The position numbers and the translations under genes were made by a program. A DNA stretch of 64,000 bases from a virus (lineage: Duplodnaviria; Heunggongvirae; Uroviricota; Caudoviricetes), in the IMG/VR virus record IMGVR_UViG_2703718819_000007; one strand, written 5' to 3'. This document shows positions 3,972 through 39,776 of the stretch, one piece after another. Numbering within the stretch: the stretch's first letter is position 1; every line of letters starts with the position of its first letter. The notes under the pieces were generated by a model that saw nothing but the letters and a program-made list of their open reading frames with translations, had not been told where the DNA came from and searched no databases.

Positions 3972-5236
3972 CCAGAAAACCGTGGCGTGCGGGGAAGGAT
4001 TTATCCACAGTTGTGGAGAACATGGAAATTGGCACCGGGCAGCGTGGTGACGGACGCCACGCATTTGTGACCCGTGAGGAACTGGTTGGTCTTAAACTCG
4101 CCCGGCGTCGAACATCGGGTGGTGCCTCATATGCACTGAATCCGGGTATTGAGATTGACAGTACTTTAATGACTGTTGATTTTCCCACAAAACCGCTGAA
4201 TTTTAAGGCGACAGGAGGATTTGGCTCGGTTCTTCTTGAATGGGATATGCCTAATTATCGCGGACATTCACTGACTGAAATCTGGCGGGGTACGGAGGAT
4301 GACCTTGCTGATGCAGTGCTGGTTGCCACGACGCCGGGGCAGGTTTACGGCGATCCGGTTGACCCTGGCTGGTCGGGATTTTACTGGATACGTTTTGTTA
4401 ACGCGGCAGGAGTGAAAGGTCCATGGAATGCTGAAAAAGGCACTCAGGCACAAACACAGATCGGCGTGAAGGCCATCATTGACCAGATCCGCGATGAGGC
4501 TGCAAAGTCGCCGGTTGTGTCCGAGCTGCGTAAAGAAATAAAAAACGCGCAGGGGCAGGCTGTAAAGGATGCTGCAATTAAGACAACCGAAGTTGTGGGG
4601 ACTCTCAGGGAAGAAACGACAAGAACGATTGGTGGTATTGAAACCCGCATTAGCACACTGGATTCATCAACCAGTGAATCGCTTAATGAGGTCGACAAGC
4701 GCATCACTAAACTGGATAAAGAAGGCGGTGAGGCGTTTCTGGCAATGTGGTCAAAAAAAGCGGGAGTTGATGGTATCACTGCGGGGATCGGGATTGTCGC
4801 CGGAAAAGACAGTGAAGGTAGGCCTGTAAGTCAGGTTGCAATTTCTGCGTCGCAGTTGTTTGTCTTTGACCCGAACAACCCGGATAACACCGCCTATCCG
4901 TTTGCGGTATCAGGTGGCAAGGTTGTGATCCCGAAAGCGATGATTTATGACGCGGTGATTGAAACACTGGTGTCGCGGAAGGTTGTGGCGGATGAGGTAA
5001 AAGCCGGGGTAAGTATCACTTCGCCAGTTATCCGGAGTGCCGTTATTCAGAACGGAAACTTTCAGGTTGATTCTCAGGGTAACCTGAATATTGGAGGCCT
5101 TTTCAGTGTTACGTCACAAGGGCAACTGACAATTCGTTACTCTAATCAGAATGTAGGACTGGTGATCCGCAATGATAAAATTGAGGTTTATGATCAGAAT
5201 GGACGACTGGCTGTTCGCATAGGCAGATTACGCTGA
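3968..5236 (+). CDS. Hypothetical phage tail/host-recognition-associated protein (422 aa)
   Basis: Long ORF coupled to upstream gene; region resembling tail-tip protein segments (GFYWIRFVNAAGVKGPW). Confidence 0.45.
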   Translation: MTRKPWRAGKDLSTVVENMEIGTGQRGDGRHAFVTREELVGLKLARRRTSGGASYALNPGIEIDSTLMTVDFPTKPLNFKATGGFGSVLLEWDMPNYRGHSLTEIWRGTEDDLADAVLVATTPGQVYGDPVDPGWSGFYWIRFVNAAGVKGPWNAEKGTQAQTQIGVKAIIDQIRDEAAKSPVVSELRKEIKNAQGQAVKDAAIKTTEVVGTLREETTRTIGGIETRISTLDSSTSESLNEVDKRITKLDKEGGEAFLAMWSKKAGVDGITAGIGIVAGKDSEGRPVSQVAISASQLFVFDPNNPDNTAYPFAVSGGKVVIPKAMIYDAVIETLVSRKVVADEVKAGVSITSPVIRSAVIQNGNFQVDSQGNLNIGGLFSVTSQGQLTIRYSNQNVGLVIRNDKIEVYDQNGRLAVRIGRLR

Positions 5237-7900: not shown

Positions 7901-8557
7901 ATGGGTGGAAGTAAAGGTGGTGGTGATACCAAAGTAAAACCAACAGCAGCGCAAATAGCACAGGAAGAAGTGGCCTGGAAAGGGTGGCAGGATTACAAAA
8001 ATATCCTCCGCCCGGCTGAAGATAACTTCATGGAAAAGGTCGATGACCTGAACAGTGAGCAGCAGTACGACAATATCGCTGGCACCACAAATCTGGGGTA
8101 TCAGAAACAGTTTGGCGAAGCACGGAAGGAGCTGGCGGGTAATCTTGCTCAGTCCGGTGTTGACCCGTCCAGTGGTCGCTTTAACGCGGTAATGAATGCG
8201 AACCAGAGTGATCAGGTAACCGGGCAGATTGACACAACCACACGGGGGCAGGTATCGCAGGCAGATAAGTATGTTGCCGGGCTACAGGATGTTGCAGCTC
8301 TCGGTTCAGGTCAGAAGGCGGATGCGTTACAGAGTTTTAACTCGCTGGCAGACAGCAGTCTGGCAAAAGCTAAATCGGACGCACAGGCTGCGTTTACGAA
8401 ACAGCAGGGGCGAGCCTCTCTTGTTGGCGCTGGTTTGGGTGCGGTAGGTGCATATGCGATGCATAAGGCTGGTGGTAGCGGAGGAAGTGGCGGTGCTAAA
8501 ACACCGGGCACCGGCGCTAATGCCATTCAGCATCAGGCTCAGAACTGGAGACTGTGA
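7901..8557 (+). CDS. Hypothetical virion-associated protein (218 aa), first gene of a coupled operon ending in the giant ORF
   Basis: AGGGGG RBS, stop/start overlap with next gene. Confidence 0.5.
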   Translation: MGGSKGGGDTKVKPTAAQIAQEEVAWKGWQDYKNILRPAEDNFMEKVDDLNSEQQYDNIAGTTNLGYQKQFGEARKELAGNLAQSGVDPSSGRFNAVMNANQSDQVTGQIDTTTRGQVSQADKYVAGLQDVAALGSGQKADALQSFNSLADSSLAKAKSDAQAAFTKQQGRASLVGAGLGAVGAYAMHKAGGSGGSGGAKTPGTGANAIQHQAQNWRL

Positions 8558-24012: not shown

Positions 24013-26439
24013 TTAAACCTTTTCGATCTGGACAAGATTGCTGTGCGACGGGTTTCCCTTTGCCAGCGGTGAAGGGCGGTGAGAGGTCAGAATATTGATA
24101 CTGCCGCCGTGATCGACCCGGTCACCAAACATATCCGCTTTAAGCCACGCACCTTGCCCGATGGCGGTAACGCCAGGCAGAATACGCGGAGTCACTTTTG
24201 CGGCAATCAGCATTTCTCCATTATTGTTAAATACCCGCACGGTATCGCCATGACGGATACCGCGTGCCTGAGCATCAATGGGGTTGATCCACACCTCTTG
24301 TGGGCAGGCCTGCTGTAACACATCAATATTGCCGTAGCTGGAGTGGGTACGCGCTTTGTAGTGGAAGCCCGTTAACTGCAGTGGATAGGTTTTCCGCAGG
24401 GGATCGTCCCAGCCATCAAAACCTGGGGTATACGCAGGAAGGGGATGAATAATTTCATCTTTTTTCAATTCCCAGGTATCTGCAATCTTCGCCAGTCGTT
24501 CAGAATAAATTTCGATTTTCCCCGAAGGTGTTTTCAACGGGTTTGCCTGTGGATCTTCACGGAATGCGCGGAAAGCGACGTAGTGTTCTTCCGGGCATTT
24601 TTTCTTAAAGATCCCGGTCGTTTTCATCTCCTCGTAGTCGGGCATCTCAGGGTTACGTTCCTTCGTTTTCGCATGGAGATATTTGATCCATTCATGCTGA
24701 CTGCGACCTTCAGTAAAGGTTTGATAAACGTCTGGTCCTAAGCGTTTGGCGACTTCACTCAGCATCCAGTAGATGGGTTTGCGTTCAAATTTTGCTGAGG
24801 TTGCGGGTTGGGCGAGGATCACATAGCCCATATTCCCTGCAGATTCATGAGAGATAAGGTCTTCTTGCTCTGTTGGCATCAGGTCGGGCAACAGGATATC
24901 GCAATACTTAGCCGAGGCCGTCATGAAGTGGTCAATGCCAACAATCATCTCGCACTTGCTGTCATCCTGAAGCACCTCATGGGTGTGATTGATGTCGCCA
25001 TGTTGATTGATCAATGTGTTACTGGCGTAGCACCATAAAAACTTGATGGGGACATCCAGTTTTTCTTTTCCACGAACACCATCACGGGTCGCGGTCATTT
25101 CCGTACCATGGTCGATGGCATCTGTCCATGTAAAGACGGAAATCTGCGTTTTAACAGGATTCTCAAGCATCGGGAACCATTCTACCCCCAGATCCCAGCT
25201 ACCTTCGCGTACACCTGAGTTGCCGCCGTTTATGCCGACGTTACCGGTGAGAACGGAAAGCATGGCAATAGCGCGGGACGTTTGCTCGCCGTTGGAATGT
25301 CGTTGTGGCCCCCAACCCTGACAAATATAAGCAGGTTTTGCTGAACCGATCTCTCGTGCCAACTGGATAATTTTTTCTGCCGGGATGCTGGTGATTTTTG
25401 CTGCCCATTCCGGCGTTTTAGCTATGCCGTCAGGCCCTTCGCCCAGAATATAGGCTTTATAATGCGCGTTACGTGGTGCGTTGGCGGGCAGCGTTTTTTC
25501 ATCGTAACCAACACAATATTTGTCGAGAAATGGCTGATCGACCATGTTTTCAGTAATCAGTACCCAGGCAATCGCACAGGCCAGTGCGCCATCGGTGCCA
25601 GGGCGAATGGGCAGCCATTCATCTTCACGCCCGGCAGCAGTGTCGTTATAACGTGGATCGATGACGATCATGCGTGCGTTTGAACGTTCGCGGGCTTGCT
25701 CGACGTAGTAAGTGACACCACCGCCGCTCATCCGCGTTTCTGCCGGGTTATTTCCGAACATAACGACCAGTTTCGTATTGGCGATATCATCCGGGCTGTT
25801 GCCATCATTGGCACCGAACATATAACTCATTGCGGCACTGATCTGTGCGGTACTGTAGCTGCCATAGCGACTGAGAAAACCACCGCAAGAGTTCATCAGA
25901 CGGTACGGGACGTTTGAGTTGGTGATGTTTCCGCCATCTACGCCTGTTCCGTACAGGACATGTACAGCCTCATTGCCGTAATCTTTCAGGATCCGCCGAA
26001 GATTATCACTGATGGTATCCAGGGCTTCGTCCCAACTTATCCGTTCAAATTTACCTTCACCGCGCTTGCCGACGCGCTTCATGGGATATTTCAACCTATC
26101 AGGATGATTCATCCGTCGGCGGATAGAGCGCCCGCGTAAACACGCTCGAACCTGATGGTTACCGTAGACGTCGTCACCTGTCGTATCAGACTCCACCCAG
26201 TACACGGTGTCATCTTTCACATGCAAACGTAACAGACAGCGGCTCCCGCAGTTAACGGTGCAGGAACTCCAGACCGCTTTCTCTTCTACCGGAGCCTCTG
26301 CCGCCCGGACCATTTGGGAAAATGGCAGAGTGAAAGCACTGCTTGCCAGCGCAAGACTGCCAAGTGCGGAGGTTTTCATCAGACTTCTACGGCTGATTTC
26401 AGCCTTCATGAGCGCCTCTGTGGTATGGATTTTCATCAT
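24013..26439 (-). CDS. ynfF: DMSO-reductase-family molybdopterin oxidoreductase catalytic subunit YnfF (Tat signal)
   Basis: RRSLMKTSALGSLALA twin-arginine signal, CxxCxxxC Fe-S motif, 808 aa. Confidence 0.85.
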   Translation of the reverse strand: MMKIHTTEALMKAEISRRSLMKTSALGSLALASSAFTLPFSQMVRAAEAPVEEKAVWSSCTVNCGSRCLLRLHVKDDTVYWVESDTTGDDVYGNHQVRACLRGRSIRRRMNHPDRLKYPMKRVGKRGEGKFERISWDEALDTISDNLRRILKDYGNEAVHVLYGTGVDGGNITNSNVPYRLMNSCGGFLSRYGSYSTAQISAAMSYMFGANDGNSPDDIANTKLVVMFGNNPAETRMSGGGVTYYVEQARERSNARMIVIDPRYNDTAAGREDEWLPIRPGTDGALACAIAWVLITENMVDQPFLDKYCVGYDEKTLPANAPRNAHYKAYILGEGPDGIAKTPEWAAKITSIPAEKIIQLAREIGSAKPAYICQGWGPQRHSNGEQTSRAIAMLSVLTGNVGINGGNSGVREGSWDLGVEWFPMLENPVKTQISVFTWTDAIDHGTEMTATRDGVRGKEKLDVPIKFLWCYASNTLINQHGDINHTHEVLQDDSKCEMIVGIDHFMTASAKYCDILLPDLMPTEQEDLISHESAGNMGYVILAQPATSAKFERKPIYWMLSEVAKRLGPDVYQTFTEGRSQHEWIKYLHAKTKERNPEMPDYEEMKTTGIFKKKCPEEHYVAFRAFREDPQANPLKTPSGKIEIYSERLAKIADTWELKKDEIIHPLPAYTPGFDGWDDPLRKTYPLQLTGFHYKARTHSSYGNIDVLQQACPQEVWINPIDAQARGIRHGDTVRVFNNNGEMLIAAKVTPRILPGVTAIGQGAWLKADMFGDRVDHGGSINILTSHRPSPLAKGNPSHSNLVQIEKV

Positions 26440-26496: not shown

Positions 26497-27523
26497 TTAT
26501 ATTTTTTCGATCTCGACCAGATTAGTGTGCTGCGGGTTTCCCTTCGCCAGTGGTGAAGGGCGCAGAGTGGTTAGCGTATTCACACAGCCGCCATGGTCGA
26601 TTTTATCGCCAGACATATTGGCCTCGTGCCAGGCTCCCTGGCCCATAGCGCTAACTCCAGGGAGAATACGTGGTGTTACTTTGGCTGGTAGCCGAACTTC
26701 GCCACGATGGTTAAACACCCGCACCATATCGCCGTTGGCAATCCCACGTTTCTGCGCATCTATAGGGTTGATCCACACCTCCTGACGGCAGGCAGCCTTC
26801 AGGAGATCAATATTGCCGTAGGTCGAGTGAGTACGGGATTTGTAATGGAAACCAAACAGTTGCAGTGGGAAGGTTCTACGTTCAGGGGAGTCCCAGCCTT
26901 CAAAGGTAGAGGCATAAACTGGCAGTGGGCTTATCACTTCATCTTTTTCCAGTTCCCAGGTACGGGCAATTTCCGCCAGCTTGCTGGAATAAATTTCAAT
27001 CTTACCGGAAGGTGTTTTAAGTGGATTTGCCTCGGGGTCGTCACGAAATGCTTTGTAGGCGACAAAATGACCATTGGGATCTTTACGCTTATAGATACCC
27101 ATTTTTTTCAGTTCGTCGTAAGACGGTAACGCCGGATCTTTGGCAAGCATTTTGGCGTACAGATGTTGTAACCATTGTTCCTGCGTGCGACCTTCAGTGA
27201 ACTTTTGATAGACGTCAGGTCCAAGACGTTTCGCGACTTCACTCAGGATCCAGTAAATCGGTTTGCGTTCGAATTTTTCGCTGGTGACAGGCTGGAGGAA
27301 AATGAGATATCCCATGTTACCGGCGTAGTCGTTAGGAATAATATCTTCCTGCTCAACGGTCATCAGGTCTGGCAGCAGAATGTCGGCATATTTTGCCGAT
27401 GAGGTCATAAAGTTTTCGATGACCACAATCATTTCGCATTTCGATTCGTCCTGCAGAATTTCATGCGTTTTGTTGATGTCAGAATGCTGATTAACGAGGG
27501 TATTTCCCGCGTAGTTCCAGATG
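26497..27523 (-). pseudogene. ynfE: ynfE 3' (C-terminal) fragment, separated from its 5' part by the 6.7 kb insertion
   Basis: Translation ...ESIWNYAGNTLVNQHSDINKTHEILQDESKCEM... to ...VEIEKI paralogous to the YnfF C-terminus; upstream part of the ORF reads into element DNA. Confidence 0.8.
27513..27523. repeat. Left copy of 11-bp direct repeat agttccagatg (target duplication or att core)
   Basis: Identical 11-mer at 34224-34234; joining the flanks restores an in-frame ynfE (KFIWNYAGN). Confidence 0.75.
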
Positions 27524-27588
27524 GACTCCACTGTCAGACGGATGGACGGACTTGAAGTAGTTGACTCAACGCTACTTAAGGTCCTGAT

Positions 27589-29211
27589 ATGACTGACATT
27601 AACCATGACAATACTGTATATCCATCCAGTTCTTTCTCTGGGTCTCCCTATCTGTATCAGCAAGTCTACACCTCAAGTCCTGACACAAGGCTGACACAAA
27701 TCAACCTACTCGGCGTGGCTTGCTCGCTACTTGCTAAGCCTCAGTTAGTCCGTAGAGCCAATGGTCGATATACTATCCGCTTCAGACTCAAGGGACAGAC
27801 CATCCCGTTTCTTTCAGTATCGACCCGAAGCACAGACAGGAGAGTAGCCACAATGCGTCAGAGAGAGCTTGCAGCCACAGCTAAGTCCTTCATGTTGGAT
27901 AGGCCTGATGTCTCGCTACAGGAGCTTACAGAGCACCTCCGGTCTATGGCTGAGCAGTTCCTGACAGACGCTAGTGACGATTACTGGAATGGACTTGAGG
28001 TCGCTACTTTGGTGGACGAGAAGTCCAACCTGAAGGAGCTAGCCGCTACGCAAGCCTTAAGTCTGGACCAGCAGAAGGGCATAAGGTTAGCGCTTGAAGT
28101 CCTGACCGCAGCACAGCAGAGGGTAGACACTGGTGATACCTCTGGTCTGATTAAGCTGATTGATGATAATAACCATACTGATTACTCAACTATAGGCGAC
28201 TCTACGTCAATTCTGAAGAATGAGCAGGGGGATAGACCAGCAGTTTTCACACAGGAGCCCCAACCTGAGGTCACTATCGCTGACCAACCAGCTATCTGTA
28301 GTTTTTCTGAGCTAGTGTCCTCGCTGCTGGCTGAGAAGGTCCAGACCCTGAAGTCATCCAGCTACAAGGACCTGTCGTCCTCACTGAATACCGTCTCTCG
28401 GTTCTTACCTGAAGACATGGACCTGATGTCCCGCTCTGAGTGGCTGGCTGTCAGGGACGCTATGCTGGCTTCTGAGGTGAGACCGTCGACGATTAACAAG
28501 CTGCTGACTAAGGCGAAGATGTGTCTTGACTACGGTCTGATGAATGGGCAACTTGAGGGCCGCAACCCTATTGAACGGATGAAGCTGACCAAGGATATCG
28601 ACTCCAAGCGCAGAGCGTTCACAGACGAGGAGCTGGAGAGACTTCTGGTCCGTGTTGAGGCTGAGTATCAGTTCACACGACACACGGCTCACACGACCTC
28701 TGAGGCCCGTAGATGGGCGTCTCTGGTGTCTGTAGTTACTGGCGCTCGGTCTGCTGAGGTCTGCCACCTGACTAAACGTGACATTGTAACCTTAGACAAT
28801 GGACTGGTCTGTATCGACATCAACGAAGATGGGGACGGTAAGTCTGTGAAGAACAAGCATTCAGTCCGACTTGTGCCGTTGACCGATGGGGCCTGTGGTC
28901 TTGACCTGAAGTCCTTCCTCGAATGGGTAGACATGCAGCCTGACGAGGGTCCTCTCTTCGGGATGACTCCAAGCGCATACTCTAGCTGGTTTAACTCTAG
29001 GGTCCTGACTGAGGCCCTAGGAGACTCTCAGGATGTCTCTCTCCACAGTCTGAGGCATTGGCTGGCGACCCGCATGAAAGAGCGTGGAGTCAATCTGGTG
29101 GATGCTCAGGGCATCTTAGGCCATAGCAGTCAGTCCATTACGTATGACCTGTACGGGAAAGGACATGCAGTCCAGAGACTGGCTGAGGTGCTGAAGACAG
29201 CTTTACTTTAA
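27589..29211 (+). CDS. Tyrosine recombinase/phage integrase (start uncertain: ATG 27589, GTG 27715 or ATG 27853)
   Basis: C-terminal HSLRHWLAT...GHSSQSITYDLYG catalytic motifs (H-x-x-R, Y); N-terminal RYTIRFRLKGQ arm-binding-like motif. Confidence 0.85.
   Translation: MTDINHDNTVYPSSSFSGSPYLYQQVYTSSPDTRLTQINLLGVACSLLAKPQLVRRANGRYTIRFRLKGQTIPFLSVSTRSTDRRVATMRQRELAATAKSFMLDRPDVSLQELTEHLRSMAEQFLTDASDDYWNGLEVATLVDEKSNLKELAATQALSLDQQKGIRLALEVLTAAQQRVDTGDTSGLIKLIDDNNHTDYSTIGDSTSILKNEQGDRPAVFTQEPQPEVTIADQPAICSFSELVSSLLAEKVQTLKSSSYKDLSSSLNTVSRFLPEDMDLMSRSEWLAVRDAMLASEVRPSTINKLLTKAKMCLDYGLMNGQLEGRNPIERMKLTKDIDSKRRAFTDEELERLLVRVEAEYQFTRHTAHTTSEARRWASLVSVVTGARSAEVCHLTKRDIVTLDNGLVCIDINEDGDGKSVKNKHSVRLVPLTDGACGLDLKSFLEWVDMQPDEGPLFGMTPSAYSSWFNSRVLTEALGDSQDVSLHSLRHWLATRMKERGVNLVDAQGILGHSSQSITYDLYGKGHAVQRLAEVLKTALL
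27681..27700. repeat. Left arm-type repeats tgacacaagg-c-tgacacaaa
   Basis: Same 20-mer recurs at the right end (34136-34155) in direct orientation. Confidence 0.6.
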
Positions 29212-29218
29212 GTAGGAA

Positions 29219-29270
29219 GACCCAAGGTGGAGACCATATACGGCTTGATGGTTGAGACCTTGGGTCACTG
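29219..29270 (+). terminator. Long-stem hairpin after integrase stop; possible terminator or processing site
   Basis: gacccaagg ... ccttgggtc 9-bp inverted repeat. Confidence 0.35.
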
Positions 29271-29399
29271 AAGTCTGACTGAAGTTAGGGAGGGTGATAA
29301 TAATCATAATCCCTCCTGACTATAGGCCCACTGGTTCGCCTTCGGCTGTCCGACTCTAAGTCTGTCTGTGGTCTTATTTAAACTGCGTCCTAAACTCCA

Positions 29400-29650
29400 G
29401 TCCCTCCAAATTCCTATGGTCTCCTCTTGACATTCCTGTTTAACTGTGAGTCGCCTCTGGTCTCTCTTTATATATACTTCCTTAATTCCTGAGGCGTCTT
29501 TAGTCCTTGACATTCTGTCCAACCTGTGAGTCACATCCGGTCCTCCCTCTTTATATTTACTTCCTTAATTCCTAGGGTCGCCTTAATCCTTGACATCCAG
29601 TCCAGCCTGTGAGTCACATCCTGTCGCGCTACTGTATGCATCACCAGTGG
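29400..29650. repeat. Three tandem ~80-83 bp repeat units each containing TTGACAT and palindrome TGTGAGTCACA; candidate operator or iteron array
   Basis: TTGACA at 29427, 29507, 29590; cttccttaattcct and ctgtgagtcac recur with the same period. Confidence 0.65.
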
Positions 29651-29652
29651 TG

Positions 29653-29675
29653 GACTTGATTATCACTATAGGGGA
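29653..29675 (+). promoter_or_regulatory. T7-type single-subunit phage-RNAP promoter motif (tatcactatagggga)
   Basis: 12/12 match to T7 core TCACTATAGGGA (-8 to +4); 36 nt upstream of an RBS-preceded ORF. Confidence 0.6.
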
Positions 29676-29705
29676 ACCAACTAATTCAACGACAGGAGAT
29701 ACTCT

Positions 29706-30074
29706 ATGGCACGACCAATCGCAACTCACGACAACACGTTCACCAAAGCCTACTTGCAGCAGCACTGCGGGGACCTGCTGTCATTCGATGGTCAGGGTGA
29801 CTTGAGTGGCTGGCTGGATGATGTCCTTACTGGTGCTGGTCGCCTGAGCGAATCAATGGCAAGCAATACCAAGCCTGTCAGCCCATACTTGATTCTGACC
29901 CAACTACTAACGCACGACACATTAACTGTAAGCGCTGTGCAGGAGTCCCTGAGCCGTAAGCGTGTTGCCTTGGGTGAACCTATGGTTTCAACTCGCTACG
30001 CTCGCTACGTCTATTCTACGGTGGTCAGCGCCAGTAAATCCGTCAAGTACCACGCCAGTAAAGCTGGTTCATGA
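29706..30074 (+). CDS. Hypothetical protein (122 aa), first gene downstream of a T7-type promoter
   Basis: AGGAGA RBS 6 nt upstream of ATG. Confidence 0.6.
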   Translation: MARPIATHDNTFTKAYLQQHCGDLLSFDGQGDLSGWLDDVLTGAGRLSESMASNTKPVSPYLILTQLLTHDTLTVSAVQESLSRKRVALGEPMVSTRYARYVYSTVVSASKSVKYHASKAGS

Positions 30075-30095
30075 TAAAGGACCCTAAACTATCAC
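30073..30095 (+). promoter_or_regulatory. Second T7-type promoter motif (tatcactatagggaaga)
   Basis: Shares exact 13-mer tatcactataggg with 29660-29672. Confidence 0.6.
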
Positions 30096-30504
30096 TATAG
30101 GGAAGACCAACCTTGCCTCTGAGTCTGATGCGTCAGAACATGCGAGCATCTGGTCAACCGACATTAAGTATCTCTCCTAAGTAATCAAGGCCCGTGACCG
30201 CCTCTGTCAGACCTCCTGTATGACCTCCAGCTCGTTAGCGTTCTTTAGTCGTCTCGGTTAGTAGCTCGTCTACTCACTACATTGGCTTAAGTCTATCACC
30301 GCTCACCATCTGGAAGTCCTTACAGCTCGTCCTGACATGCGGTCGCACCTTTATACGTACATGGAGAACATGGTCACTCCAGACCGTCAACATTTAACCA
30401 TTCACTTTCGTTAAGCACTTTCTGATGGGTCCGTTTAGGATGCGTCTGAATGGTGCGGACTCCATGTGGAGACAGAAAGTGCTTTACCAAAGGAGCATCT
30501 TTGT

Positions 30505-31020
30505 ATGAATACCGAATTACCAGTAACTAACCGCCAGTTCTTAATCATCCTGCTGACCAATGCAGAGTCCAGTGTCGATTGCTGTCGCTATAACTTAGAC
30601 CTGCTGAAGTTATCCCGATGGTATGCCCAGGCGGAAGACTGGGACTATGAGAAAATCCGGGAGATGTACGCGGAGCCTATCCAGTCATACCTCCAGACAC
30701 ACACCGAGGAAGAGCTGAAGCGTGGCCTGCAGGACATCTTCTATTTCAACAATCCTTACACCTGTGAGGGTGACTCAGAAGAGATGGATTGGATAGCGTC
30801 ACGCTCTGATGCCGACTTGAAGCACATCTCTAACGCGATGATGCAGGTGGAGAGCAAATGGTCTCGCCGACTTCAGGTCCTAACTGAGGATTACGAAAAC
30901 GGCACCTTTGATAAGCTGGTCCCACCTGATACCGAACGTCTTCAGGCGAAAGCTGACCAAGAACAGCGCTTCAAGTCCTTTGCCGAAGCTCTGGCGGGAG
31001 GTGCCTCTTATGACTTCTGA
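30505..31020 (+). CDS. Hypothetical acidic protein (~171 aa)
   Basis: AAGGAG RBS 10 nt upstream of ATG 30505. Confidence 0.55.
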   Translation: MNTELPVTNRQFLIILLTNAESSVDCCRYNLDLLKLSRWYAQAEDWDYEKIREMYAEPIQSYLQTHTEEELKRGLQDIFYFNNPYTCEGDSEEMDWIASRSDADLKHISNAMMQVESKWSRRLQVLTEDYENGTFDKLVPPDTERLQAKADQEQRFKSFAEALAGGASYDF

Positions 31021-31504
31021 CAATAAGCAGGAATACACCATTCATATCTTCGGTCAGGACATCACCAGTCAGGACGGATTGTTTCGACTCGATGAAATTC
31101 GCCGGGTCGGCATTCAGATTGGCAAAGTAGAAGACACCGAGTCGACACAGTACAAGCGTTTTGCTCAGACCAAAGTTGGAAAGCTACTGAGGAATAGGCA
31201 GAAAATCCGCCTTATCCGAATGGGTGAACTCGGGTCTACCGTCCTTGCTGACCCCGCCGCTACTGTAGAGTTTGGTCGCTGGCTGGACTTTGAGTACGGA
31301 CTGGCAGTCTCTGAAGCCTTCGTGTCTATGACCTCCAGCGCCACCGTGCAGTCTGCTGTAGCGTCTGCTGAGGACATCAAGCCGGAGACCAAGGAATTCA
31401 TCCAGCGTCATGGCACAGGCCTCTACATCGCCGGACGTGAAGTCTCACAGGCTGAGTATTCAGACTATCAAGCTGTGACCGCTGGTCGCTGTGAGTGGAG
31501 GTAA
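31009..31504 (+). CDS. Hypothetical protein (~165 aa)
   Basis: ATG overlapping the upstream stop (translational coupling). Confidence 0.5.
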
Positions 31505-31510
31505 GTAATC

Positions 31511-31684
31511 ATGGCTATGATTGACCCACGCACACCTGAGGGCCGCATGACTCTCCGTTACCGTGGCTACCGGACTGAAGTCCTCCTCAGAGAGCTTGGT
31601 CTAGACCCGGAAGATGAGACCCGCCAGCACCAATCCCGAGACGAGCTGATAGCGCAACTGGTCGCTATGAAACTGTCTGCCTAA
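31511..31684 (+). CDS. Small hypothetical protein (57 aa)
   Basis: GGAGG RBS upstream of ATG; not in ORF track because <60 aa. Confidence 0.45.
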   Translation: MAMIDPRTPEGRMTLRYRGYRTEVLLRELGLDPEDETRQHQSRDELIAQLVAMKLSA

Positions 31685-31780
31685 TTTTAAAACCTTTTGA
31701 GATGACCGATGCGGGGAGACCCGTAGGCGCTACTGCGTCTGCGATACCGATAGTCTCAACTCTCAAGAGGAGAATTACCT

Positions 31781-32272
31781 ATGATGTTCAACAACAACAA
31801 CTGGAAGCTGTCAGTCACCGACATCAACCTTTATGAAAACACTGTGAGTCTGGACGGTCAGCCCTATCCGCTGTCGCTCGCTATCAAGACCCTCATTCCG
31901 GGCTACCTGTCAGGCCTGCCGTCTACCAGCCGCGAGGCAATGGAGTTACTGGAAGCTCTGGCTGAAGCTGGCGTAGCTATTGGCAACTTCTTCAGTAATG
32001 ACCTGATGACCGCCTATGGTCGCCGCCAGCTTAACAAACGAGCTGAGGCTGAGCGTATCGCTAAAGAGCTGGCATCTCAGAAAGAGCGTATGCGTGAAGA
32101 GAACATGACCGATGCAGAGTGGCAGAAAGAGCTACAGCGCCGCGAACAAGTCAAAGCTGAACGCCGGACCTATGGTGAGAACCTCCGCAGTGCAACCCAT
32201 TCCGCTGGTCGCTCCCGTGCCGCTATTGTCGCTGACCTTGAGTCAGGCGGTAACTGGCTGGACAGCTTATAA
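31781..32272 (+). CDS. Hypothetical protein with charged coiled-coil C-terminal half (163 aa); scaffold-like by position
   Basis: AGAGGAGA RBS; K/E/R-rich helical region; immediately precedes the 328-aa ORF. Confidence 0.5.
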   Translation: MMFNNNNWKLSVTDINLYENTVSLDGQPYPLSLAIKTLIPGYLSGLPSTSREAMELLEALAEAGVAIGNFFSNDLMTAYGRRQLNKRAEAERIAKELASQKERMREENMTDAEWQKELQRREQVKAERRTYGENLRSATHSAGRSRAAIVADLESGGNWLDSL

Positions 32273-32356
32273 GACACACAGTCCCTGACCCGATGTTAGG
32301 GACTCCTCAGTTTTGAGGACTCACAGTATTTAAACTAATTTAGGAGATTGATTATT

Positions 32357-33343
32357 ATGACGATTAAAGACGCTTTCCAGTTTGGCATTGAGCCAGTACG
32401 CATCACCGATACCGACAACATTCAGGTCAATGAAGGTCTGCCGACTAACGCTGACCCGCAGGTCTACGCCCTCCAGTTAGCTAAGACGGTTAAGGCTATG
32501 CTGAACGGTGTACTTAAGGACGCTCAAGAGAACATCCCGTTCCCTGTAGAAGTCCTGCCGACCCGTAACAGCTTACCGACCCCAATCATTGCCCACACTC
32601 TGGCTGACCGCTCTGTGGTCGTTCCTGTCCGTGGTGGCAAGCGACCTGAAGTCGTGACCATTCCGTCTGGACAAGAAATCGTGGTCGAACCAATCGAGCA
32701 GGCTATTCTCATCTCTGAGCAGACCACTCTCTGGGACGCCAAGTCATCCACCGGATTCACTCAGGGCACACTTCAGCAGGACGCTATGAACATCTGTGAG
32801 AATGTGGTCCGTACCATCAACGCTCACATGGTCGACGTTCTGGAATCCTCTAAGCTGCTGAAGACCGTAGAGCTTCCTGTCCTGACTGGTAGCCTGACCG
32901 CTAAGGCAGACGCTATCATGGACGCTCTGTATGAGAACACAGAGCCTTCTTTCGGTTCTGAGGTGTCTAACTACGGTATTATCGCTCATGAGAGCCAACT
33001 GAAAGCACTGTCCCGTCTGGCTGCTAAGCAAGGCTTCTCCGGTGAAGACGCTATCGTCGATATGCTGGGAACAGACATCGCCTACTACAACGGTGAAGAC
33101 AAGGGTGTATTCATGCTGGCTAAACGCTTCACGGCTCTGAGCTTCGGTTGCTTCCGTCACGATGGCGAGAATATTACGGTCGTCCTTTCACGTGATGGCG
33201 ACTCTCAGTCCCACGACTTGGAAATCCTCGGTAAAGTGTACGTTGTCGCTGAAGCTGCTACGACCATCAAGATGGGCACTGGCTCAGCTACTGCCGTCCT
33301 GCCTGTAGTCAAACGCCTGAAGTTCACCAAGACCGAAGCGTAA
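32357..33343 (+). CDS. Hypothetical 328-aa protein, largest non-integrase gene of the element; candidate structural (capsid-like) protein by context only
   Basis: AGGAGA RBS 8 nt upstream; leader tttaaactaatttaggagattgattattATG resembles the T7 gene-10 leader. Confidence 0.5.
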   Translation: MTIKDAFQFGIEPVRITDTDNIQVNEGLPTNADPQVYALQLAKTVKAMLNGVLKDAQENIPFPVEVLPTRNSLPTPIIAHTLADRSVVVPVRGGKRPEVVTIPSGQEIVVEPIEQAILISEQTTLWDAKSSTGFTQGTLQQDAMNICENVVRTINAHMVDVLESSKLLKTVELPVLTGSLTAKADAIMDALYENTEPSFGSEVSNYGIIAHESQLKALSRLAAKQGFSGEDAIVDMLGTDIAYYNGEDKGVFMLAKRFTALSFGCFRHDGENITVVLSRDGDSQSHDLEILGKVYVVAEAATTIKMGTGSATAVLPVVKRLKFTKTEA

Positions 33344-33348
33344 GACCA

Positions 33349-33588
33349 ATGGGTAAGAGCATTAGTAAAGGCTTCAGGTCCATCGCCAAGGGCCTGACAG
33401 GTGGTGGTGGGACTCAAGGTGGGGCTTCGGTCCCGCCTCCTGTAGCTCCTCCTGTAGCTCCTCCAGATGACGCTCAGCAAGCTGTAGTCGATACCCAAGG
33501 TCAGGAGACCGAGGGAGGTAAGACCATGAGCAGAGGTAAGTCTGGACTGAATATCAGCAGGACTTCAGGTGGTGGCCTGTCACTGTGA
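33349..33588 (+). CDS. Small Gly/Pro-rich protein (79 aa)
   Basis: ORF 5 nt after previous stop. Confidence 0.4.
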   Translation: MGKSISKGFRSIAKGLTGGGGTQGGASVPPPVAPPVAPPDDAQQAVVDTQGQETEGGKTMSRGKSGLNISRTSGGGLSL

Positions 33589-33826
33589 TTAAGACATCTA
33601 TACAGCCTGTGGAGGGTGGACGATATCAAGCAACAATCTGGATGACACGCAGAGTCTATAAGCGGCTATGCTGGTCACTGGCTGAAGCTGAACAGTGGGT
33701 GAGACGTAAAGTGCCTACCGTTCAATCGTTCCAATCATCATGATAACTATGGTCTGGACCAATGGTCTGGACCTTTGTTTTGTACTAGTTATCTAGTGCA
33801 GTAGTACAATAGACGAAGGAGGCTTT

Positions 33827-33982
33827 ATGTCCATGACTTCCGCAGACCTAAGGTCCCTCCTGACTCTGGTCTATAAACTCGTGCTCCTCTCTGTGGGTCT
33901 CTATATGGTCCTCTCCGGTCGACTCGGTGTGAATGTATTCGACACTCTGTCTAAGGCTGTGGGTGGGCTTCTGGGGGCTTAG
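33827..33982 (+). CDS. Small hydrophobic (single transmembrane) protein, 51 aa; holin-like by size only
   Basis: Strong AAGGAGG RBS; LVYKLVLLSVGLYMVLSG hydrophobic core. Confidence 0.4.
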   Translation: MSMTSADLRSLLTLVYKLVLLSVGLYMVLSGRLGVNVFDTLSKAVGGLLGA

Positions 33983-34135
33983 GTTTGGACTCACAGTGGG
34001 ACCGATGGTTTCTGACAGAAAAATGTGAATGACCATCTAATACATTAAGCCAGCAGACTTCTCCCCCATAGCCCCGCCTCAAGTCCAGACCGAGGCCACC
34101 GGGGTCCTGACCAGCCGTCTAGACATCCCGTCTAA

Positions 34136-34168
34136 TGACACAAGGCTGACACAAAGCCTGACACAAAG
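34136..34168. repeat. Right arm-type repeats: three copies of tgacacaa(g/a)g
   Basis: Direct repeats at 34136, 34147, 34159 matching the left-end 20-mer. Confidence 0.6.
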
Positions 34169-34223
34169 TCCTTGACTCAATGCAGGACCTCAGACCTACT
34201 AAGGGTCCGCTTCAAGTCCTTGA

Positions 34224-34234
34224 AGTTCCAGATG
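34224..34234. repeat. Right copy of 11-bp direct repeat agttccagatg
   Basis: Identical to 27513-27523. Confidence 0.75.
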
Positions 34235-35634
34235 AACTTAATGGGCACATCCAGTTTATCTTTGCCGCGGACGCCGTCGCGGATTGCCGTCATTTGCGGA
34301 CCATGATCGATAGCATCTGTCCAGCTGAAGCAGGAGATTGACATTTTGACCGGATTATCCAGCACCGGCAGGCGTTCTATGGTAATGGTATAGGTCGATT
34401 CACGCGCGCCACTATTTCCGCCGCTGATGCCGACATTGCCCGTCAAAATAGGTAACATAGCAATAGCGCGTGCAGTCAGTTCGCCGTTTGCCTGGCGTTG
34501 CGGCCCCCAGCCCTGGCAGATATAAGCGGGTTTTGCTGTGCCAATTTCACGCGCCAGTTTGATGATACGGTCTACCGGGATACCGGTAATTTGCGAAGCC
34601 CACTGCGGCGTTTTCGCTGTGTTATCATCACCTTCACCAAGAATATAGGCTTTATAGTGACTATTTTTGGGTGCATCTGCGGGTAAGGTTTTTTCGTCAT
34701 AGCCGACGCAGTATTTATCGAGAAAAGGTTGATCAACGAGATTTTCGTTAATCAATACCCAGGCAATACCCGCAACCAGCGCGGCATCGGTGCCCGGGCG
34801 AATAGGGAGCCATTCATCTTCACGACCAGCAGCCGTATCGGTATATCGCGGATCGATAGCAATCATTTTGGCGTTCGATTTCTCGCGCGCTTTTTCAAGA
34901 AGATAAGTGATGCCACCGCCGCTCATGCGGGTTTCTGCCGGGTTGTTACCAAACATCACGACCAGCTTGCTGTTTTCAATATCCGTGGTGCTGTTGCCAT
35001 CATTACTGCCGTAGGTGTAGGGCATGGCACAGGAAATTTGCGCGGTGCTGTAGGAGCCATACTGATTGAGTGAACCGCCGTAGCAGTTCATCAGGCGTTT
35101 GACCGCCGAGGCTGATGGCGAAGAGCGGGTCATATTGCCGCCAACGATCCCCGAAGAGTACTGAATATATACAGCCTCATTGCCATATTGTTCGACGGTT
35201 TTCTTCAGGCTACTGGCGATAGTATCCAGGGCTTCATCCCAGCTAATCCGTTCGAATTTGCCTTCGCCGCGTTTGCCCACGCGTTTCATTGGGTAATTCA
35301 AGCGATCGGGATGATTAATACGCCGACGGATGGATCGACCACGCAAACAGGCGCGTACTTGATGATTGCCATACTCGTCGCTGCCGGTGTTGTCAGTTTC
35401 CACCCAGGTGACTTCATTATCTTTAACATGTAGACGAAGTGCACAGCGGCTACCACAGTTGACGGAACAGGCACCCCAGATCACTTTTTCGCTGGCCTGT
35501 TGTACCGCTGCCGCTGCACTGCGCAGGGTGAACGGTAAAGAAAAACCGCCTGCAGCCAGCGCCAGAGAACCTATCGCGGTTGATTTAACGAGTGTTCTGC
35601 GGCTGATGCCCACCATTCGGTCATTTTTGGACAT
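34224..35634 (-). pseudogene. ynfE: ynfE 5' (N-terminal) fragment with Tat signal, interrupted by the element
   Basis: MSKNDRMVGISRRTLVKSTAIGSLALAAGG...; reading frame runs into element sequence and stops at 34177. Confidence 0.85.
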
Positions 35635-38561: not shown

Positions 38562-39776
38562 ATGAAGATCGTAAAGGCTGAAGTTTTTGTTACCTGTCCG
38601 GGGCGTAATTTCGTCACATTAAAAATCACCACTGAGGACGGTATTACGGGCCTTGGGGATGCCACCCTCAATGGACGTGAGCTTTCCGTGGCCTCTTATT
38701 TGCAGGATCACCTTTGTCCGCAGCTTATTGGTCGCGATGCGCACCGTATCGAAGATATCTGGCAGTTTTTCTATAAAGGTGCTTACTGGCGTCGCGGTCC
38801 GGTTACGATGTCGGCCATTTCAGCGGTTGATATGGCGCTGTGGGATATTAAAGCCAAAGCTGCCAACATGCCGCTTTACCAGTTACTCGGCGGCGCGTCT
38901 CGTGAAGGGGTGATGGTTTATTGCCATACCACCGGTCACAGTATTGATGAAGCTCTGGATGATTATGCCCGTCATCAGGAGCTGGGATTCAAAGCCATCC
39001 GCGTGCAGTGCGGAATCCCTGGTATGAAAACCACCTACGGCATGTCGAAAGGTAAAGGTCTGGCTTATGAACCCGCAACCAAAGGACAGTGGCCGGAAGA
39101 GCAGTTGTGGTCGACGGAGAAATACCTCGATTTCATGCCGAAATTGTTTGACGCGGTACGTAACAAGTTTGGTTTTAATGAACATTTGCTGCATGACATG
39201 CACCATCGCTTAACGCCTATTGAAGCGGCGCGCTTTGGTAAAAGCATTGAAGATTATCGCATGTTCTGGATGGAAGACCCGACGCTTGCAGAAAACCAGG
39301 AATGCTTCCGTCTCATTCGCCAACATACCGTCACACCCATCGCAGTGGGTGAAGTCTTCAACAGCATCTGGGACTGCAAACAACTGATTGAAGAGCAACT
39401 CATCGATTATATCCGCACCACGCTGACCCATGCAGGCGGAATTACCGGTATGCGCCGGATTGCCGATTTTGCTTCGCTGTATCAGGTACGTACTGGCTCA
39501 CACGGTCCTTCCGATTTGTCACCAGTCTGCATGGCTGCAGCGCTGCACTTTGATCTGTGGGTCCCCAATTTCGGTGTCCAGGAATACATGGGTTATTCCG
39601 AACAAATGCTCGAAGTCTTCCCGCACAACTGGACTTTCGATAACGGCTATATGCATCCGGGAGACAAACCGGGTCTTGGCATCGAATTCGATGAAAAGCT
39701 GGCGGCGAAATATCCCTATGAACCTGCTTATCTACCAGTCGCACGTCTGGAAGATGGCACGCTGTGGAACTGGTAA
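38562..39776 (+). CDS. rspA: Starvation-sensing protein RspA (enolase superfamily, mannonate dehydratase-like)
   Basis: [38 protein letters not shown]... Confidence 0.9.

Follow-up and report, generated by a model that had tools for sequence, protein, structure and literature searches.

Introduction

T7-like phages are, by the textbook, strictly virulent and self-sufficient, and they are workhorses of phage therapy. K1F, EcoDS1, CR44b and PE3-1, which belong to Kayfunavirus, are podophages of the T7 group with an RNA polymerase (RNAP) of their own. Among the satellites known to exploit helper phages, the PICI, cf-PICI, P4-like and PLE types are 10-20 kb in size and have their own replication modules together with genes that redirect the capsid or the terminase; PLE parasitises a virulent phage, and to our knowledge none of the PICI, P4-like or PLE satellites uses promoters for a single-subunit phage RNAP. 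Here we analyze an element of 6,711 bp that is integrated in the gene ynfE, at positions 27524-34234 of a 64,000-nucleotide stretch of DNA (IMG/VR virus record IMGVR_UViG_2703718819_000007; the window, below, means this whole stretch). Like those satellites it is an integrase-bearing chromosomal island, one member of a family of small integrative elements found in Enterobacteriaceae. Its K1F-like promoters and a split mimic of a phage concatemer junction at its ends make it, in our reading, probably a satellite that depends on T7-like phages.

Minimal satellites of virulent phages provide the closest comparison in function. PICMI and the marine VEIMEs are 5-7 kb long, have very few genes and none for capsid remodelling, depend on a virulent helper and are packaged as concatemers of helper-genome length, as in PICMI115 with 8 x ~6 kb = 49 kb (PMC10803314, PMC9618062); in size, gene number, lack of remodelling genes and putative virulent helper, the ynfE element is alike. 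PICMI, however, resides in Vibrionaceae next to fis, with int, alpA and prim as core genes (PMC10803314, PMC9618062), and the element differs in host, site and gene set: it has no recognisable replication or AlpA gene, whereas it does have promoters for a helper RNAP and a junction mimic split by its attachment site, attP. The element and the PICMI and VEIME families have no sequence similarity, and the resemblance to PICMI is functional only. By analogy, the element appears to work like a minimal satellite of a virulent phage, in the manner of PICMI, VEIME and PLE, yet it does not fit the definitions of PICI, PICMI or a T7-like prophage. PICI and cf-PICI are about 10-15 kb and carry int, a master repressor or alpA, pri-rep, and terS or capsid genes; the element is 6.7 kb, and Pfam and PHROGs detect no primase or rep, terS or capsid genes in it. 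The single-subunit RNAP, DNA polymerase, portal, capsid, tail and terminase genes expected of an Autographiviridae prophage are also absent. What it shares with satellites in general is that it is integrated, is devoid of most virion and replication genes and carries cis-signals matched to a specific helper. The full-text literature that we searched, which misses many subscription papers, contained no description of a T7-type satellite. Chung and Hinkle, in J Mol Biol in 1990, are said to have found that T7 replicates plasmids bearing a T7 promoter-type origin and its concatemer junction, and that it packages them as concatemers of genome length. Those plasmids were engineered constructs; the element carries what look like natural counterparts of both cis-elements, the junction arising only after excision.

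The attachment site itself is ordinary. In lambda, the arm-type sites of attP are arranged as P'1-3 and P1-2 (3+2). The element has these features of lambda-type attP (lambda, P2, HP1, P4): a tyrosine recombinase whose catalytic domain is encoded beside att, a short core common to attP and attB with dyad-symmetric, inverted core-type sites, and direct repeats of a second sequence, distinct from the core, on both arms (3+2 here too, their binding by the integrase being putative). As in P2 and P4, int adjoins attP with its 5' end towards the core. Unlike in these systems, two of the repeats and much of one arm lie within the int coding sequence, and the arms double as a look-alike of another phage's direct terminal repeat (DTR).

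The integration site in ynfE is likewise already catalogued and is not new. The TIGER survey includes two islands, Eco892.7.ynfE and Sfl13.8.ynfE, with the same target gene and in the 7-8 kb size class; in its passages on them, these islands disrupt the Molybdopterin domain of ynfE and count as a candidate for regulated gene integrity (Mageeney et al. 2020, NAR, PMC7192596). They are almost certainly members of the same family. Those ynfE passages make no mention of arm repeats, gene content, phage promoters or a link to T7-like phages (PMC7192596). The novelty lies in the element that this catalogued att site, with its standard lambda/P2-like layout, bounds.

The integration site in ynfE

The original prediction held that an 11-bp direct duplication bounds the element, that joining the flanks restores ynfE in frame, and that a tyrosine recombinase had acted at an att site within this coding sequence. 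Indeed, the 64-kb window contains just two copies of AGTTCCAGATG (0.07 expected by shuffling). Both are on the plus strand, at 27513-27523 and 34224-34234, and these cores form the left (attL) and right (attR) boundaries of the element. When the left flank, one core and the right flank are joined, the sequence is identical at 91/91 positions to the uninterrupted ynfE of E. coli K-12 MG1655, which holds the 11-mer once, at the empty site; in this comparison with an intact gene the prediction stands. The interrupted gene lies on the minus strand as a 3' fragment (26497-27523) and a 5' fragment (34224-35634). Rejoined, these give an open reading frame (ORF) of 808 amino acids (aa) that is identical to K-12 YnfE at 798/809 positions and that reads KFIWNYAGN across the junction, as predicted. 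At the level of sequence, these comparisons show conservative site-specific recombination at the 11-bp core to be the way in which the element came into ynfE.

The first ORF of the element begins 66 bp from the core, at 27589-29211 on the plus strand, and encodes a tyrosine integrase (Int) of 540 aa (PF00589, 1.7e-14; phrog_1, 4.7e-43). Its catalytic domain covers aa 358-522 by PF00589 and matches the XerC-like structure 4a8e in the PDB (E=1e-4). The position of this integrase, the empty site in K-12 and the many copies bounded by the same core all support the predicted tyrosine-recombinase att site, and we infer that the element's own integrase carried out the integration.

Identity between attL and attR runs on imperfectly past the 11 bp (AGTTCCAGATG[G/A]ACT). 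Together with the next four bases, the attR core makes up the attB dyad AGTTC-CAGAT-GAACT, with arms of 5 bp and a 5-bp spacer. The dyad is kept in a diverged ynfE-like gene from another host, where the core reads TAGTTCAGATTGAACT (Logan SRR29836470, contig L015, 6661 nt). Judging from the dyad and from the point where attP and attB cease to be identical, strand exchange may occur within an overlap of ~7 bp, CCAGATG. The paralogue ynfF (24013-26439) adjoins the interrupted gene; at the homologous position it reads FLWCYAS and has no att core, so that it does not offer a second site, and its presence may compensate for the loss of ynfE.

Phage promoters within the element

We built a 33-nt position weight matrix from the 11 annotated promoters of EcoDS1 and scanned both strands of the 64 kb with a cut-off of at least 15 bits. 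Only two sites pass, both of them inside the element, on the strand of its genes, and intergenic; they flank an ORF of 122 aa (29706-30074, plus strand; phrog_23123). The stronger, CCTAAACTATCACTATAGGGAAG at 30083-30105 on the plus strand, is a promoter of the Kayfunavirus type with a predicted +1 at 30100. It scores 31.5 bits, within the range of the genuine EcoDS1 promoters, most of which score 28-39 on the same matrix (one mis-registered site scores -7). It is 26/27 identical to sites that are annotated as promoters in EcoDS1, CR44b and PE3-1 and that K1F has as well, and the 37-mer around it matches 238 phage records, mostly at 6-10 places per genome. The other, ACTTGATTATCACTATAGGGGAA at 29654-29676 on the plus strand, just upstream of the 122-aa ORF, is a weaker, promoter-like match of 23.7 bits with its flanks; the 23-mer scores 20.0 bits in identical copies in related elements.

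Related elements have 2-4 such promoters each, without exception on the strand of the genes and in corresponding places. The motif GGACTAAACTATCACTATAGGGAG, which is found at both sites in the window, also occurs twice in a relative integrated at a tRNA-Gly gene (see below). In the copy with the core TAGTTCAGATTGAACT (Logan SRR29836470), the promoters are of a variant form, AAATTATCACT(A/T)TAGG, which suggests adaptation to a helper whose RNAP has a different specificity.

A mimic of a phage concatemer junction split between the two ends

In a comparison of the element with EcoDS1, the two promoter sites score highest and the right end comes next; there 33987-34097 of the window aligns with 39025-39135 of the phage, a segment that spans the start of the 178-bp DTR. 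We joined the two ends as excision would join them (33960-34234 followed by 27524-27720; the k-mer across this attP junction is TCCTTGAAGTTCCAGATGGACTCC) and compared the product with three Kayfunavirus concatemer junctions. Positions 34-203 of the joined sequence (window 33993-34162) are 69.5% identical over 177 nt to the pre-DTR region and DTR start of BHUENT8. In this alignment TCTAATAC, at 34036, stands opposite the phage end TCTCACAG; the mimic of the pre-DTR region and DTR start as a whole (33987-34135, plus strand) also includes CCCCCATAGCCCC and AGTCCAGACC. On the other side of the core, 27629-27684 matches the end of the DTR of phage Pisces at 78% over 59 nt, and the annotated boundary of the Pisces DTR falls between GAGTCTCT and ATCTGTATCAG, opposite GGGTCTCCCTATCTGTATCAG in the element.

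The best score of the joined ends is 69.7 bits, as compared to 19.5 +/- 2.2 (maximum 26.8) in 300 dinucleotide shuffles. This colinear alignment places the DTR start on one side of the core and the DTR end on the other. These alignments show that the ends of the element carry a look-alike of the Kayfunavirus concatemer junction, split by the att core.

The left half of this look-alike lies inside a gene. The DTR-end mimic, with a CACCTCAAGTC repeat, occupies codons 14-31 of int (27629-27680, plus strand), and together with two further repeats described below it takes up codons 14-38. By alignment, Int of the ynfE type has an N-terminal extension of 45-68 aa that is absent from the Int of the tRNA-Gly lineage. 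Within the extension only SPYLY and DTxLTQ are conserved, the rest being variable with in-frame indels; SPYLY is the translation of the DTR-end mimic and DTxLTQ that of two TGACACAA copies. Conservation of the extension only at these DNA blocks points to a constraint at the DNA level laid over the ORF, and the first ~45 codons of int (window 27589-27740) appear to be overprinted on cis-elements.

Distribution and a sister lineage

The right arm of the element is present in 168/5426 complete E. coli genomes, in ynfE in every case, and 47 genomes contain most of the element at high identity. The same 11-bp core bounds copies in E. coli, Shigella, Leclercia and metagenomes, while in Citrobacter and Kluyvera the left core takes a variant form (AGTTCCAGAT-A or AGTTCCAGA-A-G). 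Copies of the ynfE type that are free of insertion sequences (IS) measure 6.30-6.83 kb, with a median of 6.60 (n=25). Many others have been hit by IS: ISCro1 twice in RM10410, and elsewhere the IS21-family ISEc12, IS3 and IS4 (loci L002, L012, L007, L009). In Shigella flexneri the integrase is widely truncated, with hundreds of partial Int entries.

Several metagenome assemblies have the element as a separate contig flanked on each side by 44 nt of ynfE. Given that 44 + 11 = 55, the assembler k-mer, the assembly graph must branch exactly at the core, which indicates that occupied and empty sites coexist. We considered these element-length contigs as possible excised circles and rejected them as such; they consist of the element plus k-mer-length ynfE flanks.

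A sister lineage, found in 120/5426 complete E. coli genomes, occupies the 3' end of a tRNA-Gly gene; it is seen in E. coli ECONIH6 (L007 373-9259) and also at about 20 metagenome loci. Together, the ynfE and tRNA-Gly types are present in about 5% of complete E. coli genomes. Copies at tRNA-Gly are 6.13-6.43 kb long and have their core genes and phage promoters in common with the ynfE type, as well as a portion of the right arm that includes a DTR-start block that scores 48-51 bits. Their Int is 31% identical to that of the ynfE type and has a weak match to DUF6538. A search for further lineages of integrase and att found only these two among 60 metagenome loci, so that any test of covariation has n=2. 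One metagenome contig, OGXI01003134.1 (L062), has the C-terminus of a ynfE-type integrase at its left end, while a core of the tRNA-Gly type lies close to the right one. Either the two lineages have recombined here or the contig is a chimera of the assembly.

The same ynfE site also holds a large variant. In E. coli Jnd12 (NZ_CP095820.1 2719336-2735000, L009) it spans ~15.7 kb, or about 13 kb without IS, and encodes a homologue of a gp16-type internal virion protein, 37-42% identical to EcoDS1 gp16 and split by ISEc12 (IS21 family). It also encodes an HNH endonuclease and a regulator of the Ant/Rha kind, and it has four promoters of the phage type.

Direct repeats on both arms

Inside the ends, five direct copies of tgacacaa(g/a)g had been noted and read as arm-type sites. 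Their positions and orientation hold up: the 8-mer TGACACAA has six copies on the plus strand of the window and none on the minus strand, and five of the six are in the element ends, the other being at 8230. The ten-base formula does not, since the second left copy reads TGACACAAAT and the pattern TGACACAARG has four matches in the window. On the left arm, the two repeats (27681-27688 and 27692-27699) begin 158 and 169 bp from the core and lie within codons 31-38 of int, not in non-coding DNA. On the right arm, three repeats start at 34136, 34147 and 34159 (34136-34166), 88, 77 and 65 bp before the core. All are in one orientation on both arms, with a spacing of 11-12 bp. Both left copies are invariant across 27 distinct left arms, and the repeats are kept in the strongly diverged Jnd12 element, where neighbouring bases have changed. 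Some relatives have an extra copy, TGACACAAGG, directly after the int stop codon (position 4373 of locus L006, 4061 of L008); the element in the window has none there.

That the repeats are present on both arms, phased, invariant and replaced in the sister lineage speaks for the arm-type interpretation, and we lean towards seeing in them candidate binding sites of Int. As to the arm-binding domain that this calls for, Pfam gave no arm-binding family in Int of the ynfE type, a profile search of PDB sequences gave no such domain, and hhalign pairs KPQLVRRANGRYTIR of Int with PPNLYIRNNGYYCYR of lambda in a weak match (E=0.26). In an AlphaFold2 (AF2) model, aa 46-170 of Int form three beta strands followed by a helix (pLDDT 74-84), and this predicted beta3-alpha fold, at aa ~50-130, is a possible arm-binding domain.

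Alternatively, the TGACACAA repeats could be a part of the helper DTR mimic, for example sites for a packaging or replication protein of the helper, with the integrase needing only the core or other arm sequences. Further observations that count against arm-type sites come from the same alignments as the junction mimic. The repeat pair of each arm lies in a module of ~40 bp, GTCTAnACnTCnnGTC..TGACACAAGGCTGACACAA, that is homologous to the interior of the Kayfunavirus DTR in BHUENT8 and Pisces (GTCTAAACCTCAAGTCATTGACCCAAGGTTGACCAGAAGTCTGAC), and the repeats may thus be, or derive from, packaging-region sequence of the helper phage. The right-arm copy of the module is colinear with the phage DTR, its repeats falling on the TGACCCAAGG-TTGACCAGAAG repeats of the phage; with such positional homologues, they may serve packaging rather than Int.

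Three observations nevertheless make this alternative rather unlikely. First, the tRNA-Gly lineage has the same type of promoter and the DTR-start mimic, yet it has no TGACACAA; in the same layout it has a repeat of its own, CACTGTRACYA, twice per arm (2+2) at 11-bp spacing. With its own Int and its own repeat, this lineage shows the repeat following the integrase and not the presumed helper. Second, the repeats in the phage DTR are degenerate, whereas the five 8-mers of the element are exact and invariant. Third, the left pair lies beyond the DTR-end mimic, at a place where the phage repeats differ. Even as arm-type sites, the repeats could well have their origin in the terminal-repeat sequence of a phage.

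A probable satellite of T7-like phages and the alternatives

How might such an element spread? Upon infection by a K1F-like phage, the helper RNAP would transcribe the element from its two promoters. Int would then excise it, joining the ends and restoring a DTR-like junction with attP inside, and the replication and terminase machinery of the helper would copy and package it, probably as concatemers. The TGACACAA repeats, three on the int-distal arm and two on the int-proximal arm, would act as Int arm-type sites, as in lambda-type attP. Three products of the element may act on helper virions: conserved proteins of 163 and 331 aa, and a 79-aa homologue of the T7-group virion protein gp7.3 (33349-33588, plus strand; phrog_1320, 1.8e-11), which is 37% identical to EcoDS1 gp7.3 in a search of that single genome. 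Because attP lies inside the terminal-repeat mimic, a packaging site would be formed only when the ends are joined.

The sizes of the elements fit packaging as concatemers: 6 x 6.6 kb = 39.6 kb, and six copies, or three of the large variant, come to about 37-41 kb, while Kayfunavirus genomes are about 37-41 kb, mostly 39-40.7 kb. The apparent logic combines promoters for the helper RNAP with a lack of replication genes and with a packaging junction that excision puts together; the literature searched had no account of it. In its fullest form, the proposal is that about 5% of complete E. coli genomes harbor minimal satellites of virulent T7-group phages that have no replication or packaging genes, are switched on by the helper RNAP, are copied by the helper replisome and are packaged as genome-length concatemers, with a packaging site assembled only upon end-joining by Int, arm sites recruited from the repeats of a terminal repeat, and a mimic partly overprinted on int. 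All of these parts together form a scheme that we regard as quite possible and put forward tentatively.

If it is true, a parasite can use the private RNA polymerase of a phage as a sensor of infection, a satellite can dispense with any replication gene, and site-specific excision can serve to assemble a packaging signal. The elements would also be a natural vehicle of gene transfer for K1F-like phages among E. coli, Shigella, Citrobacter and their relatives, and they could be a hidden factor in the efficacy or host range of therapeutic Kayfunavirus phages.

Several findings weigh against a satellite that works in this way. The similarity to the DTR is only about 70%, and in the tRNA-Gly lineage the DTR-end block is weak. 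The attP junction of an excised or circular form was found in none of the metagenome, IMG/VR and genome loci that we fetched, and the exact junction pattern of either the ynfE type or the tRNA-Gly type is absent from IMG/VR. As long as the element is integrated, int has no phage promoter upstream of it, although excision would have to be triggered within a lytic cycle of ~20 min. Searches with Pfam and PHROGs gave no excisionase of the Xis or AlpA families. Compared with all phages by tblastn, the 79-aa protein had no match at E<=1e-3, and the homology to gp7.3 therefore rests on the PHROG profile and the single-genome search. Finally, the idea of a sixfold concatemer rests on arithmetic and on the work reported for T7 plasmid transduction.

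Some of these findings would suit a phage-triggered island for defence or decoy, one that makes toxic or interfering proteins only upon K1F-like infection and spreads by other means. The phage-RNAP promoters would drive all genes other than int, no excised form was seen in the fetched loci or in the IMG/VR junction search, and the accessory region is variable: in the window it consists of ORFs of 184 and 198 aa (30466-31504, plus strand), and relatives have KilA-N, Rha/Ant, HNH or DUF4145 genes instead. PADLOC, however, matched no defence family in the element; pure defence would have no use for a mimic of the concatemer junction, which two lineages conserve; and the homologues of the virion proteins gp7.3 and (in the large variant) gp16, as well as the tight distribution of sizes, also count against it. 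Known satellites often combine interference with transfer, and to that extent the two explanations overlap; on its own, defence seems an improbable account.

Still less probable is that the element is the decaying remnant of a temperate T7-like prophage in ynfE, its promoters and pieces of DTR being fossils. The large variant at the same site, with its gp16 homologue, and the copies riddled with IS elements would be in keeping with decay. Against it, sizes are tight, and the ORFs are intact and kept in the same order in >80 loci from several genera and from both att lineages; no variant has any remnant of RNAP, DNA polymerase, capsid, portal or terminase genes; the identity of gp7.3 and gp16 to Kayfunavirus proteins is no more than 37-42%; and the promoters retain the full strength of the matrix. 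We rejected a decayed prophage on these grounds. The 11-bp repeat as the target-site duplication of a transposase can be set aside as next to impossible: transposition too leaves direct repeats at the flanks of an insertion, but this repeat is a pre-existing attB dyad, used at the same nucleotide position in every copy in several genera, the element contains a tyrosine integrase beside the core and neither a transposase nor terminal inverted repeats, and the sister lineage has integrated at a classic kind of att site, the 3' end of tRNA-Gly.

Other genes and sequence features

The element has about ten ORFs, all on the plus strand. Only int and the gp7.3 homologue are recognisable among them, and Pfam and PHROGs gave no polymerase, primase, capsid, portal or terminase genes. 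Downstream of the accessory region are three conserved ORFs, of 57 aa (31511-31684), 163 aa (31781-32272) and 331 aa (32348-33343), the latter two belonging to the conserved core. The 331-aa protein has no match in Pfam, PHROGs or the PDB; a profile search of 1.8e9 proteins yielded a family of 64 clusters, all unannotated, in which PHROG matches are confined to the Ig-like domain of one long homologue. Neither hmmsearch nor hhalign found anything for it among all EcoDS1 proteins, and its AF2 model, from a shallow alignment, was discarded as unusable (pLDDT 39). Two small ORFs, of 52 aa and 51 aa (hydrophobic), follow the gp7.3 homologue at 33585-33982. Between them, a strong terminator-like hairpin at 33751-33773 (GGTCTGGACC-AAT-GGTCTGGACC plus a T-run) comes after the 52-aa ORF and before the 51-aa ORF.

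Compared as a whole with 50,697 phage records, the element has no blastn match, and an Rfam scan of it gave no match. A scan for sigma-70 promoters produced matches no commoner than in shuffled sequence, and none can be assigned to int. Between int and the first phage promoter lies an 83-bp tandem repeat of 2.5 units (29426-29625, plus strand), every unit of which contains a TTGACA box and a stretch rich in TATAT; it recalls the three early host promoters of T7-group phages, though its -10 elements are unconvincing. Within the gp7.3-like ORF, a 12-bp tandem repeat, CCTCCTGTAGCT x2.4 (33436-33464), encodes PPVAPPVAPP.

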